Assembly: GCA_029933005.1 (NCBI GenBank)
Contig: JAOZOY010000005.1
Coordinates: forward strand, 10,940-74,939
Length of the DNA: 64,000 nucleotides
Direction of reading: 5' to 3'
Source of the DNA: Deltaproteobacteria bacterium
Lineage (GTDB): Bacteria; Desulfobacterota; Desulfobulbia; Desulfobulbales; SURF-16
Both the position numbers and the translations under genes were made by a program. This document shows positions 60,153-62,839 of the stretch, one piece after another (position 1 is the stretch's first letter; each line of letters opens with the position of its first letter). The notes beneath the pieces were generated by a model. It ran no database searches. It had not been told where the DNA came from and saw only the letters and a list, made by a program, of their open reading frames with translations.

Positions 60153-61302
60153 AAGGCGATTTAAATTGCCGGATTACAGTGACCTTACCAAAGACCAGGA
60201 CAGAGCATTAAGACTCCCAAAAGAGGGGCAGTTTCTTATCGTTGGCGGTCCGGGCACAGGAAAATCTGTTGTTGCTTTGCTGCACATTATGCGTCATCAG
60301 CAAGCCAACGATCACCTATTTCTTACGTATAATCATGTGCTGAGAGCATTCACAAAACAATGCGTTGAATCCAGTCTTAATAATGACACGGCATATTCAT
60401 GGTTTTATAAAACGTATTATGCGTTAACAAAAAAATTTGTCCCTAAAATTGAAGAGTACAAACCTGATTATGACAAGATTATACAAGTATACGAAGAACT
60501 CAACTTAGAGGAGTCAGAAAAAATATATTTTGTTATTGACGAGGGGCAGGATCTTCCACAGGGATTTTATGAATCCATTATGGCCCTTGGGCATGAAAAC
60601 TTTTTTATAGTGGCCGATCAAAATCAACAGATCACGGAACAACGTTCAAGTATCCAAGAACTTGTTGACATGCTTGCCTTGGACAGGTCCAATGTTATCG
60701 AATTGAAAGAAAACTTTAGAAATACTAGCCCGATAGCTCTATTTGCCCAGCAGTTTTACACTGATAAGGCAAGTCCAAAACCAAAGCTGCCAGACACCCC
60801 ATCGTTAGACACACCTGTTTTATACGAGTATGAGTTTGTCGATGATTGTGTAAAAATGATGCTTCGAGAAGCTGACCAGGATCCAGCAAAACTGATAGGC
60901 CTTATAGTGGCCACAGACACCAAGCGTGACGACTATGTACGGCGTCTTAGGAAAATGGATATTGAGAGAGATTATGATAAACCATTAGTGTCAAGTTATA
61001 AAGCGAGTAACCAGGAAAACGTTGAGATTGATTTCAGCCGGGGAGGCATCGTTGTTATCACAGACAAATCATGCAAGGGGATTGAATTTGATATCGTCTT
61101 TATACTGCTTGACGGGTTCAAGTTGCACATGGGAGATATTACTGCAATGAAAAAAAGATTTTATGTCATGACTTCAAGAGCCATCAAAAAACTGTTTCTG
61201 TTCACAGGCTCGAAATGTACCCAGGTTGATCCGGAAGTAATTGCTCTGCTACCTGAAGACGAAACAATTCTGAAAAGGGATACTCTTTACTATGGCAGCT
61301 AA
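60145..61302 (+). CDS. Compact SF1 (UvrD-like core) P-loop ATPase/helicase
   Basis: The ATG at 60145 follows GGAG and overlaps the DUF1998 stop by 8 nt; the track's start at 60049 was rejected. Motifs: Walker A 'GGPGTGKS', Walker B 'VIDEGQDL', 'NFRNT', 'KGIEFDIVF', 'YVMTSRA'. Confidence 0.75.
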   Translation: MAKRRFKLPDYSDLTKDQDRALRLPKEGQFLIVGGPGTGKSVVALLHIMRHQQANDHLFLTYNHVLRAFTKQCVESSLNNDTAYSWFYKTYYALTKKFVPKIEEYKPDYDKIIQVYEELNLEESEKIYFVIDEGQDLPQGFYESIMALGHENFFIVADQNQQITEQRSSIQELVDMLALDRSNVIELKENFRNTSPIALFAQQFYTDKASPKPKLPDTPSLDTPVLYEYEFVDDCVKMMLREADQDPAKLIGLIVATDTKRDDYVRRLRKMDIERDYDKPLVSSYKASNQENVEIDFSRGGIVVITDKSCKGIEFDIVFILLDGFKLHMGDITAMKKRFYVMTSRAIKKLFLFTGSKCTQVDPEVIALLPEDETILKRDTLYYGS

Positions 61303-62839
61303 CAGATGGTTCTTTCCGACAAATACTGAAAATTTAAAGACGATACTAGCACATGGACTCATTTGTGGCCCCGCAGGCTATAAAAAATACTATTCTGATA
61401 TTTCATGCTCCTTCTTCGGATTTATACCGATTTTTTGTAATGGCAATGATGGTCACAAAAAGGCCCTAACAAAAGCAAGAGAAGAAGATGCTAATCTTGA
61501 CCTTTGTCTACTTGAAATTAACCTTAACCAGATACAGGCAGGCAAAGTCTATCTGACAGACAGTAGTCCAGTTGACATTGAGCAATGTCATGATCCGTCT
61601 TTTGGCACTATTTGTATCCCTGCCCCACTTCCTTTGTCGTGTGTTAAGCAGGTAATATTTTGTGATTCCAAAACAAAATATACCTTTACAGATGATATTA
61701 AATCCTACGGTGACACACCTCAAGATGCACTTAAGATGGTTGTTGCCAAAAAACCTGAACAAAAATTATTTAAAGAAGCAGAACAAACAGGAATGTTAGG
61801 GGACTCGAAGGAAACCGAGGCAGAGCCATCTTTCTCTGCACAATACACATGCTCTACCCATCAAAATTATAAAAACATTTATTCATTTGGCGGATCGTTA
61901 TGCACCCTGTTTTACTTTGCAAAAAATGGTGCCACAACCAATAGCGCATTGGGAGATTGTACCAAAATAAAAAAACTTGAAAATTATGTCGAAAATGACG
62001 AACCGATTACATTTGAATCCCTTCTCTGCTGTCTCAATAATTATTTCTATCACAAGACAGGTCATACGAAAAAAAATGTTCCACAATTCATCATCTTGGA
62101 CAGTGTGCTGGATAGCTTAGTAGAACAGGAAAAGAATGAACATATCACATCAATTGTTAATTTCCTTAATTCAGCAGATGTCTTTGATAAAGAGGAAGAA
62201 AAATCGAGGGCGAAAGAACTGTCAAAACGCCTGACTGATTTTTATAATAATAAAATTGATTCGAAAGCATCGACCCTTTTTTCCACCTCACGTTCAAGAG
62301 TTGAAAAAATACTTTTGTTACTGGCGTACAGAGACGATGTTGCAGGTCTGCTTGAGACAGATATTGCTAAGCTGGAAGTATTTGACGAGGAGGACTACAT
62401 CATTGCTGCCATATTGTTCGGTGCCCGCAGCAAATACCACAAAATCCCTATTTCCTTACGCCAATACCCCGGGATACAGGGGTACATGTCTTATCTGATG
62501 GCCCAATTTGCCCATACCACAGGGAACACAGGAATAACATTTAAGAAACCACCAATCCCACTGACAATTATGGAAATGGTCGATCCCAGACGGAGGGAAC
62601 AATCAAAAAAATTAGGCTTTATCTACTGGCTAAGTAACAAGTACACAAAACTGCAAAACTGCTTTGAAACCATCATGCCCAACAAAAAATTTGCAAATGA
62701 TAATGGTAAAAGTACCTATGATGGTGTCGTCTTACCCGAGATAAACATTAAAGAGCAGGAATATTTCAAAGTTATGTCGAAGATCAAGGTTGATGATGAA
62801 GCCTATGAAACCATCCTGAAAAAATATAAATCCGCTTAA
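61292..62839 (+). CDS. 515-aa protein of unknown function
   Basis: A long ORF that overlaps the upstream stop by 11 nt and abuts the next ATG. I could not recognise any catalytic motif. Confidence 0.7.
   Translation: MAANRWFFPTNTENLKTILAHGLICGPAGYKKYYSDISCSFFGFIPIFCNGNDGHKKALTKAREEDANLDLCLLEINLNQIQAGKVYLTDSSPVDIEQCHDPSFGTICIPAPLPLSCVKQVIFCDSKTKYTFTDDIKSYGDTPQDALKMVVAKKPEQKLFKEAEQTGMLGDSKETEAEPSFSAQYTCSTHQNYKNIYSFGGSLCTLFYFAKNGATTNSALGDCTKIKKLENYVENDEPITFESLLCCLNNYFYHKTGHTKKNVPQFIILDSVLDSLVEQEKNEHITSIVNFLNSADVFDKEEEKSRAKELSKRLTDFYNNKIDSKASTLFSTSRSRVEKILLLLAYRDDVAGLLETDIAKLEVFDEEDYIIAAILFGARSKYHKIPISLRQYPGIQGYMSYLMAQFAHTTGNTGITFKKPPIPLTIMEMVDPRRREQSKKLGFIYWLSNKYTKLQNCFETIMPNKKFANDNGKSTYDGVVLPEINIKEQEYFKVMSKIKVDDEAYETILKKYKSA

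Follow-up and report, generated by a model that had tools for sequence, protein, structure and literature searches.

A predicted ADP-ribosyltransferase-ADP-ribosylglycohydrolase fusion protein in a conserved, methylase-less DISARM-derived cassette

DISARM is thought to separate self from non-self by methylation, and its DrmA and DrmB proteins (DrmAB) reportedly serve as the sensor and translocase for the ends of invading DNA. According to Bell et al. (2025), members of the DISARM branch of the YprA helicases typically encode the helicase and the DUF1998 array separately; the authors also mention 'many uncharacterized DISARM-like classes' without describing the cassette considered here. DarT enzymes, which are ADP-ribosyltransferases (ARTs), act on single-stranded DNA (PMC11543638). 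In the recently validated DarHTG system, defence depends on three parts: DarH, a UvrD-like helicase that lacks a 2B domain; DarT; and DarG3, an antitoxin resembling ADP-ribosylglycohydrolases (ARHs) (PMC13069673). The present work concerns 64,000 nucleotides from a Deltaproteobacteria bacterium (assembly GCA_029933005.1, contig JAOZOY010000005.1, positions 10,940 to 74,939; hereafter the window) and, near its 3' end, a protein that we call X. We find that X is an obligate subunit of a conserved cassette that is derived from DISARM but lacks a methylase. Our preferred reading, for which we see somewhat less than an even chance, is that X is a fused ART-ARH module that acts as a non-catalytic or non-classical regulator or sensor of this cassette.

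The X family and its gene order

An earlier note, made from the sequence of the window alone, had delimited the gene of X, and the open reading frame and its length of 515 amino acids agree with it exactly. The ATG of X falls within the final codons of the superfamily 1 (SF1) ATPase gene that precedes it, giving an overlap of 11 nt (ATGGCAGCTAA), and an AAGGG Shine-Dalgarno-like stretch is located 12-13 nt 5' of this start. The stop codon (62837-62839) is followed immediately by the ATG of the next gene at 62840. Overlaps are also found elsewhere in the cassette, between DrmA and DrmB (11 nt) and between DrmB and the SF1 ATPase gene (8 nt). Promoter-like sites within the cassette number 29, compared to 20.8 +/- 4.4 in shuffled sequence (a difference of nearly two standard deviations), and terminator-like sites number 8, compared to 8.3; neither kind is clearly enriched over the shuffles.

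X has no match among the Pfam, NCBIfam and PADLOC models, even at E <= 1, in keeping with its description in the earlier note as an orphan in which no P-loop, nuclease, methylase or Zn-ribbon motif was seen. Searches of PDB sequences with X alone, the full-length profile, the N-domain profile and family member P0018 returned nothing relevant. A single-sequence search gathered 68 homologues in 90% clusters, with identities down to 27%, none of which has a Pfam domain or an informative name. A family profile, built from 49 of these 68, retrieved 524 cluster representatives at E <= 0.001, 208 of them at E <= 1e-30. Given these homologues and representatives, as well as the confident predicted fold described below, X is not a chance open reading frame; it is a real gene. 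The family contains at least three subfamilies, which are distinguishable by an N-terminal motif: W-F/L-x-P-T-N-T-E-N-L (the subfamily of the window's own protein), W-Y/F-I-V-T-N-T-E-N-L, and W-x-L-V-T-N-H-L-N-L.

For the analysis of gene order, 63 loci were collected by exact protein look-up and by scans of one genome per species, of metagenomes (targeting the most distant X subfamily) and of viral contigs, and the open reading frames of the collected loci were searched with the window's five proteins. Synteny was counted over 57 non-redundant loci, using for each gene only those loci whose contig reached far enough. The order is constant in these loci: a DrmA-like helicase comes first, DrmB, the small SF1 ATPase and X come next, and a NERD-SF1 nuclease-helicase usually closes the series. 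The SF1 ATPase lies directly 5' of X in 50 of 50 loci, DrmB is present in all 43 loci carrying X that could be counted, DrmA is found upstream of X in 32 of 32, and the NERD-helicase lies directly 3' of X in 37 of 40. Two loci (L022 and L024; after 11560) are four-gene versions without a NERD-helicase, where housekeeping genes come next and X is succeeded by a PQQ dehydrogenase or an HlyD/AcrB pump. In a third (L037), an SF1-like helicase at 1668-3296, upstream of DrmA, takes the place of the downstream NERD-helicase. Because these three loci lack the downstream NERD-helicase, the invariant core of the cassette is DrmA-DrmB-SF1-X.

The earlier note had regarded X as a real subunit coupled to both neighbours and placed it at the centre of the operon. 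The 11-nt overlap on the 5' side, the abutting start codon on the 3' side and the strict synteny bear out the first statement, and homologues of X always occur together with a helicase and DrmB (DUF1998). The second holds in part: X belongs to the operon but is the fourth of its five genes and so not strictly central.

The distribution of the cassette across phyla is patchy. Loci come from Gammaproteobacteria, Betaproteobacteria, Campylobacterota, Bacteroidota and Desulfobacterota, and named hosts include Colwellia, Thiothrix, Methylomonas, Methylococcales, Lysobacterales, Aromatoleum, Arcobacteraceae, Sulfurovum, Flavobacteriales, Crocinitomix, Bacteroidales and Desulfamplus. No relative of X was found among PLSDB plasmids and GenBank phages, and the BFVD viral library yielded nothing beyond uncharacterised phage proteins and an ARH from a giant virus, at low rank. 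A 75-kb contig classed as viral by IMG/VR (IMGVR_UViG_2791355104_000001; locus L021) carries a complete cassette of the second X subfamily at 3710-13105; this contig may represent a prophage or some other mobile element on which the cassette travels. In Aromatoleum bremense (CP059467; L065, 9001-11967), the X gene is split by an insertion sequence (DDE_Tnp_1), and in L066 (3034-12157) the entire cassette has decayed to fragments, indicating that the system is lost as well as gained.

Sequence divergence was compared in the 31 loci that contain the complete set of five genes. Measured against the proteins of the window, the median identity is 49% for DrmA, 47% for DrmB, 45% for the NERD-helicase, 40% for the SF1 ATPase and 25% for X. 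Judged from these identities, X is the fastest-evolving part of the cassette, changing at about twice the rate of its partners, as would be expected for a specificity or sensor subunit; such a rate fits a part that meets phage molecules. The earlier note had suggested that X could be a degenerate ART-like sensor or adaptor, or something entirely new.

The two domains of X and their conserved residues

An AlphaFold2 model of full-length X, computed with the 49-sequence alignment, has a mean predicted local distance difference test score (pLDDT) of 87.3 and a predicted template-modelling score (pTM) of 0.90. The model comprises two domains separated by a linker, a region in which the family alignment shows large insertions and deletions and where residues 168-182 are modelled as disordered. 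When the N-terminal domain was compared with the PDB using Foldseek, the eight best matches were all DarT. They include Thermus DarT (7omw, 7omx, 7omv and 7omy), M. tuberculosis DarTG (7yk3), E. coli DarT1 (8baq) and Thermosipho DarTG (7omu), with E-values of 3.9e-3 to 4.9e-2, a probability of 1.00 and target-normalised TM-scores of 0.28-0.55 (0.46-0.55 for the seven DarT-only chains, and 0.28 for 7omu, a DarTG fusion of 376 residues). ARH3 structures and Tpt1 follow DarT in this ranking. The N-terminal domain is thus predicted to have an ADP-ribosyltransferase fold, although it is ~50 residues shorter than DarT. The earlier note had seen a weak, speculative likeness to the DarT/DUF4433 fold in the N-terminus and recommended a predicted model with a Foldseek search as a check; both the model and a faint trace in the sequences, described next, support its view. 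No confident match to a characterised family unrelated to defence, which it had named as a refuting outcome, was found.

Each member of the three subfamily alignments (49, 45 and 14 sequences; 108 in total) was scanned against Pfam at a lax threshold. The 2CompART family (PF22546, '2-Component system ADP-ribosyltransferase domain') was matched by 16 of 49, 14 of 45 and 7 of 14 members (37 of 108), with best E-values of 6.7e-6, 1.4e-5 and 2.9e-5, respectively. DarT (PF14487) was matched by three of the 108, all below threshold (best E = 6.7e-5). The 120-position 2CompART model aligns in order over residues ~6-126 of the N-domain (model positions 2-107); in P0093, for example, residues 10-121 correspond to model positions 2-99. 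The matches that were inspected individually (six to eight) score 13.8-20.1 bits against a gathering cut-off of 27 bits, and the best match, at E = 6.7e-6, would be near this cut-off. The window's X itself matches none of the Pfam models of 2CompART, DarT and 2CompARG, the glycohydrolase counterpart discussed below. Since the inspected scores are sub-threshold and the window protein is unmatched, the X family is at best a far outlier of 2CompART/2CompARG, families for which literature searches found no descriptive paper. A profile of the N-domain, searched against 5.8 billion proteins at E <= 10, retrieved only X-family fragments and no DarT or 2CompART proteins; two short matches are copies that are decayed or disrupted by an insertion sequence and not natural stand-alone N-domains.

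Control DarT genes were pulled from viral contigs with a degenerate DNA pattern of the DarT motif. Four of them match Pfam DarT with E-values of about 1e-48 to 1e-62, and one control sequence agrees with the published numbering of Thermus DarT (H13, R51, Y71, E160; PMC11543638). In the hhalign comparison, the segment W6-F-F-P-T-N-T-E-N-L-K-T-I-L-A-H-G-L of X aligns with I11-Y-H-I-T-H-I-D-N-L-K-G-I-L-R-M-G-K of DarT, pairing T10 with T15, N14 with N19, L15 with L20, and residue 8 with the NAD-contacting H13. The spacing of this β1-α1 motif, x-T-x-x-x-N-L-x-x-I/M-L-x-x-G-L, is identical in X and in verified DarT. The motif varies even among the DarT relatives on viral contigs: one control DarT-like group (L096-L098, ~1501-2082) has I-Y-R-M-V-H-F-D-N-I, with Arg for the motif His, and other DarT-like genes have Y-H-I-V-H, with Val replacing Thr.

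At lower stringency, comparison with 20 DarT sequences gave an in-order alignment over 142 columns, which pairs FIPIF with YVPFYF (F48 with Y71), D36 with R51, strand 106-110 with AEFLV, and A-P-L-P-L with K-A-F-P-W. The fourth block proposed in the earlier note, in which 'KQVIF' was equated with AEFLV, is probably one strand off, since this alignment places 'KQVIF' against the last strand of DarT. The loss of the catalytic Glu holds under both mappings.

Residues were counted in 129 non-redundant N-domains. Position 8, equivalent to H13, is occupied by Leu (68), Phe (34), Met (10), Ile (9), Val (4), Tyr (3) or Thr (1), and by His in none of the 129. At position 48, equivalent to Y71, an aromatic residue is kept (Phe in 110, Tyr in 11). 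The position equivalent to E160 was examined under three registers: residue 106 (hhalign) is Glu in 6 of 129 sequences, residue 120 (the earlier note's register) is Glu in 12 of 129, and residue 104 (a gapless alternative) is acidic in 36%. The acidic share is thus 5%, 9% and 36%, and no column is fixed as acidic. This agrees with the earlier note, in which neither the NAD-binding His nor the catalytic Glu was found to be conserved. The position of R51 corresponds, in a low-confidence alignment, to D36, which is invariant in X (129 of 129), as are N14 and G22. Near-invariant residues are T10, N11, Y34, P46, E65 (120 Glu and 4 Asp of 129), P112, L113 and P114, and the segments I45-P46-x-F48 and A111-P-L-P114, together with F123, are also conserved. 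Of the scaffold residues common to X and DarT, the family retains the N-L motif, the Pro of β2 and the Pro that follows the 'AEFLV' strand. On sequence grounds, the N-domain appears to retain the scaffold that it shares with DarT and to have lost the classical His and Glu, while possessing a fixed Asp and Glu of its own.

The C-terminal domain was also modelled separately (residues 185-515; pLDDT 92.1, pTM 0.91). Its Foldseek matches are almost all of the ADP-ribosylglycohydrolase fold and come from at least eight different proteins of independent origin, among them MJ1187, human and mouse ARH3, an ARH that serves as the immunity protein in an ART-ARH pair from Listeria (8za7), Tri1 of Tre1-Tri1 (6dre), DraG (2woc, 3g9d), a Thermus ARH-like protein and Latimeria ARH3. 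These matches have probabilities of 0.66-0.99, TM-scores of 0.24-0.42, root-mean-square deviations of 7.5-12 Å and E-values of at least 0.037; unrelated helical proteins score probabilities below 0.2 in the same search. One family member reaches 2CompARG (PF22545, ADP-ribose glycohydrolase domain) with 15 bits against a gathering cut-off of 27 bits. This protein, P0063, has the match at residues 198-244, at the start of the C-domain, and shows 2CompART followed by 2CompARG in the correct N-to-C order. In an alignment of 149 sequences, G200 (99%), G201 (94%), M403 (99%) and H408 (85%) are conserved, as well as F376-G377 and A404, and an acidic dyad, E366/D368, is Asp or Glu in 84% and 90% of sequences. 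No second acidic motif, as in the two-metal site of ARH enzymes, was seen in this alignment, which was read without a residue-level alignment to ARH. The predicted C-terminal domain looks like an ARH, with low TM-scores. With residues 188-515 forming an ARH-like domain, X would be a fused ART-ARH pair and not an ART followed by a tail of another kind.

The resemblance to ARTs and ARHs could be fortuitous or an artefact of prediction, X being instead a scaffold of new fold that simply keeps DrmAB in contact with the two SF1 motors. The Foldseek E-values are weak, TM-scores of the helical half are below 0.5, the hhalign comparison with DarT is not significant, and the window protein matches no Pfam family, all of which this explanation would accommodate. 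However, structure searches of two models and HMM matches in three divergent subfamilies agree on an ART followed by an ARG, at least eight different ARH proteins are matched while unrelated helical proteins score low, and the T-x-x-x-N-L...G-L spacing of β1-α1 is the same as in verified DarT. We regard a fortuitous likeness as very improbable.

With the ART His and Glu missing and a full ARH two-metal site not evident, X is most likely not a classical NAD+-dependent transferase or hydrolase. In our preferred reading, a non-catalytic or non-classical regulator, X could descend from an ART-ARH pair, 'toxin-antitoxin-like' in nature, that was covalently joined and abandoned the classical reaction. 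DrmAB would engage the invading DNA first. The ART cleft of X (T10, N11, N14, D36, P46, F48, E65 and PLP112-114) might then bind single-stranded DNA or a ligand resembling NAD or ADP-ribose, and X, together with the adjacent SF1 ATPase, could gate, license or target the NERD nuclease-helicase. What the analysis shows is the gene and its family, the strict synteny, the two folds in the models, the absence of the ART His and Glu and the rapid divergence; the role of the cassette in defence, the binding of DNA or a ligand by X and the regulatory coupling are inferred.

Several observations weigh against this reading. The hhalign comparisons with 4 and 20 DarT sequences gave E-values of 0.049 and 0.016 with probabilities of 1-3%, which are not significant, and the residue mapping past β1-α1 is therefore tentative. 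The defence role of the cassette is itself drawn from homology (DrmAB, NERD) and context, and should be considered putative. Conservation over the whole protein peaks on the ART cleft, including D36 and E65. This conservation, together with E366/D368 and H408 in the C-domain, fits a non-canonical active enzyme equally well. Moreover, there are active ARTs without this Glu, and DarT1 carrying E152A still reacted in crystallo (PMC11543638).

X may be viewed, in the main alternative, which we consider unlikely on balance, as an active, non-canonical ART with a built-in ARH-like antidote or regulator, equivalent to a fused DarT-DarG3. The helicases would expose single-stranded phage DNA, the ART would modify DNA or protein by means of D36/E65 instead of H-Y-E, and the ARH-like domain would restrain or reverse the reaction in uninfected cells. 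The same module logic is found in DarHTG (PMC13069673), and the SF1 ATPase always adjoins X. The invariant D36 and near-invariant E65, as well as the acidic dyad and H408 of the ARH-like domain, are in line with it; the low-stringency alignment sets D36 against R51 of DarT, a position at which DarT1 uses D54. The high pTM of the two-domain model also suggests a fixed ART-ARH interface like those of toxin-immunity pairs. On the other hand, neither His nor Arg occurs at the NAD-contacting β1 position in any of the 129 sequences, there is no fixed Glu before the fifth strand, and the shortness of the N-domain means that the DNA-binding ARTT loop may be missing. Furthermore, the ARH-like domain offers a single candidate acidic motif, while ARH enzymes require a pair, and the Pfam matches are sub-threshold. 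A more specific version, which we think improbable, is that the cassette is a new, methylation-independent DrmAB anti-phage system in which X ADP-ribosylates single-stranded DNA supplied by the SF1 motor, through D36/E65, with the ARH-like domain as a brake.

In a signal-sensing form of the non-catalytic reading, X could also recognise ADP-ribose marks, or molecules derived from NAD+, and switch the cassette on, for example in response to ADP-ribosylation by a phage enzyme or to a fall in NAD+. Both halves derive from folds with pockets that bind NAD+ or ADP-ribose, catalytic residues have been lost yet those of the cleft kept, X evolves fastest, and no methylase is present to supply discrimination between self and non-self. 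However, DrmAB already senses DNA ends in its own right, the phage ADP-ribosylation trigger is speculation and the ligand is putative, and we consider a reader quite unlikely.

This widespread relative of DISARM retains the DrmAB sensor without the methylase, and has instead a pair of SF1 motors, a NERD nuclease and what looks like a degenerate fusion of ART and ARH. If the cassette defends against phages, it would represent a second way of arming DrmAB, and would provide either a natural test of what a DarT-like fold can do after the loss of its catalytic residues or a new catalytic solution. Should X prove to be a working enzyme, a single machine would combine helicases of the DISARM type with DNA modification of the DarT type. 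The family has hundreds of members, is unannotated in Pfam, NCBIfam and PADLOC, and has a confident predicted structure, and could therefore be curated directly.

Partner genes and surroundings of the cassette

The features of the window that are relevant to the cassette are listed in Table 1. Gene 1 matches the PADLOC DrmA model with E = 6.6e-198 and scores 815 bits against the NCBIfam short-DrmA equivalog (DISARM_DrmAS), under its cut-off of 950 bits. Gene 2 scores 328 bits against DrmB_fam (cut-off 240 bits) and matches PADLOC DrmB with E = 2e-59. Gene 3, whose PADLOC matches are GajB, Nhi and AbiO-like, has intact Walker A (GGPGTGKS) and Walker B (DEGQD) motifs; the list of open reading frames starts it at an upstream GTG, while the gene call on the source contig (L001) begins with MAKRRF and gives the 385-residue protein used here. 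Gene 5 is cut by the window end; its full length on the window's own contig (L001, 7910-9490) is 526 amino acids. It matches Pfam NERD (E = 2e-12) and SF1 helicase families, and the D...ExK residues of NERD are visible in the translation. NERD domains are PD-(D/E)xK nucleases, and the NERD-SF1 nuclease-helicase is likely the effector of the cassette.

Table 1. Features of the cassette and of its 5' flank in the window (positions are those of the window)
Feature	Position	Strand	Basis or remark
Open reading frame, 202 aa	52304-52912	-	no Pfam match; C-terminus resembles a transposase remnant; adjoins the DUF4143 ATPase
AAA_14 + DUF4143 ATPase	52954-54111	+	Pfam E = 9.7e-45 and 5.5e-27; between housekeeping genes and cassette
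RHH-type antitoxin-like open reading frame, 96 aa	54447-54737	+	judged from translation
ParE/RelE-like toxin open reading frame, 91 aa	54734-55009	+	judged from translation; overlapped by the RHH frame
Gene 1, DrmA-like superfamily 2 helicase, 1075 aa	55106-58333	+	PADLOC DrmA, Pfam Helicase_C
Gene 2, DrmB (DUF1998/MZB Zn-binding protein), 609 aa	58323-60152	+	NCBIfam DrmB_fam, Pfam MZB
Gene 3, minimal SF1 (UvrD/Schlafen-g3-like) ATPase, 385 aa	60145-61302	+	Pfam SLFN-g3_helicase, AAA_19, UvrD-helicase
Gene 4, X (putative fused ART-like and ARH-like protein), 515 aa	61292-62839	+	open reading frame, homologues, AlphaFold2 model
X, N-terminal domain (~residues 1-165), small α/β, DarT/2CompART-like	61292-61786	+	Foldseek, 2CompART alignment, hhalign
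X, inter-domain linker, low-confidence, variable length	61787-61852	+	pLDDT < 50 at residues 168-182
X, C-terminal domain (residues 188-515), all-α with a small β-sheet at the end	61853-62836	+	domain-only model, Foldseek, conservation
Gene 5, NERD nuclease + SF1 helicase fusion	62840-64000 (cut by window end)	+	Pfam NERD, SF1 families

Gene 3 and the helicase half of gene 5 are 23% identical over 224 residues, and the order of their motifs (Walker A, DEGQD, N-x-R-N-T and those at the C-terminus) agrees. By this comparison they are distant paralogues, and X is therefore flanked by two related motors. No methyltransferase, PLD nuclease (DrmC) or DrmE was found among the five cassette genes with Pfam, NCBIfam and PADLOC models, the flanks of the cassette loci are without a PLD nuclease or methylase, and no macrodomain or NADAR gene is present in the cassette, either in the window or in the annotated loci. 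A gene for a single-strand-binding protein is located just downstream of the NERD-helicase on the window's contig (L001, 9567-9857, minus strand) and in A. bremense (L065, 13585-14037, plus strand); its presence in these two loci may be chance. NERD-SF1 enzymes of the Nhi kind are reported to interact with the single-strand-binding proteins of phages.

The G+C content of the window falls from ~0.48 to 0.39-0.44 over the cassette (54000-64000), with about 0.45-0.53 elsewhere (1-52000). The region from 39 to 52 kb contains housekeeping genes, including those of acetyl-CoA synthetase, MltA, a PilT-like ATPase, CobD, a GltD-like protein, ATP synthase subunit a and an aminotransferase. The drop in G+C and the housekeeping genes preceding it make the cassette look like the edge of an acquired chromosomal island. 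The RHH/ParE-like pair ends 96 bp 5' of DrmA. The flanks vary by locus, with toxin-antitoxin and other defence genes being frequent; MazEF and JetABC-like genes, for example, occur in L004, and AbiEii, HipA and HEPN/MNT genes in L002.

Comparison with known systems

The cassette resembles class 2 DISARM (DrmA, DrmB, DrmC, DrmE and DrmMII) in having separate DrmA and DrmB genes. Unlike DISARM, it has no methyltransferase, DrmC or DrmE and contains two SF1 ATPases, a NERD nuclease and X instead, and its DrmA falls under the NCBIfam equivalog cut-off. X does not correspond to DrmC or DrmE, as there is no PADLOC match to either. The gene sets of ARMADA, BRIGADE and TALON (Bell et al. 2025) differ from that of the cassette, comprising BrxHII/PglX, 7-deazaguanine genes or TPR-CSD/TBP, and the supplement of that study does not mention NERD, DarT or ADP-ribosyl domains. 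The DISARM-associated ShdA locus and the DISARM-like operon of SAR11 were also rejected as equivalents, since they carry RmuC or a methylase. No description of the cassette was found in the literature searched. Its parts are of known kinds, and the fusion, the loss of classical residues and the absence of a methylase would together constitute a combination undescribed in the sources reached.

Among families in Pfam, 2CompART/2CompARG are, together with the DarT matches of three members, the only curated ones that members of the X family reach. DarT (PF14487; 7omv, 7yk3, 8baq) is the best structural match of the N-domain. X shares with it the β1-α1 motif with identical spacing, the Pro of the 'VPFYF' strand, an aromatic residue at Y71 (F48 in X) and the Pro after the catalytic strand. 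It differs from DarT in lacking His at H13, R50/R51 and a fixed Glu (E160), as well as in its shorter length, and Pfam DarT matches above the gathering score are absent (none at E <= 1 for the window protein, and sub-threshold for 3 of 108 members). X also differs in its context, having no macrodomain DarG partner, a fused ARH-like domain and a place in a helicase cassette. The DarT homologues retrieved from plasmids and from records of Bacillus and E. coli are ordinary DarT-macrodomain pairs.

In the ART-ARH pairs Tre1-Tri1 (6dre), that of Listeria (8za7) and DraT-DraG (2woc), an ART is accompanied by a partner of ARH fold that binds it and/or reverses its action, an arrangement similar to that proposed for X. 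Tri1, the Listeria immunity protein and DraG are also among the structural matches of the C-domain. However, these pairs are separate, catalytically competent proteins with protein targets, whereas in X the two parts form one chain, the canonical sites are degenerate and the partners are DNA motors.

By architecture, the closest known analogue of X would be DarHTG. The SF1 ATPase and X together resemble it in combining, as far as its description allows the two to be likened, a small SF1 ATPase of UvrD type with, next to it, a DarT-like ART and a partner like an ADP-ribosylglycohydrolase. They differ from it in that the ART and ARH form one polypeptide, that the DarT active-site residues required by DarHTG are absent, and that the module lies between DrmAB and the NERD-helicase.

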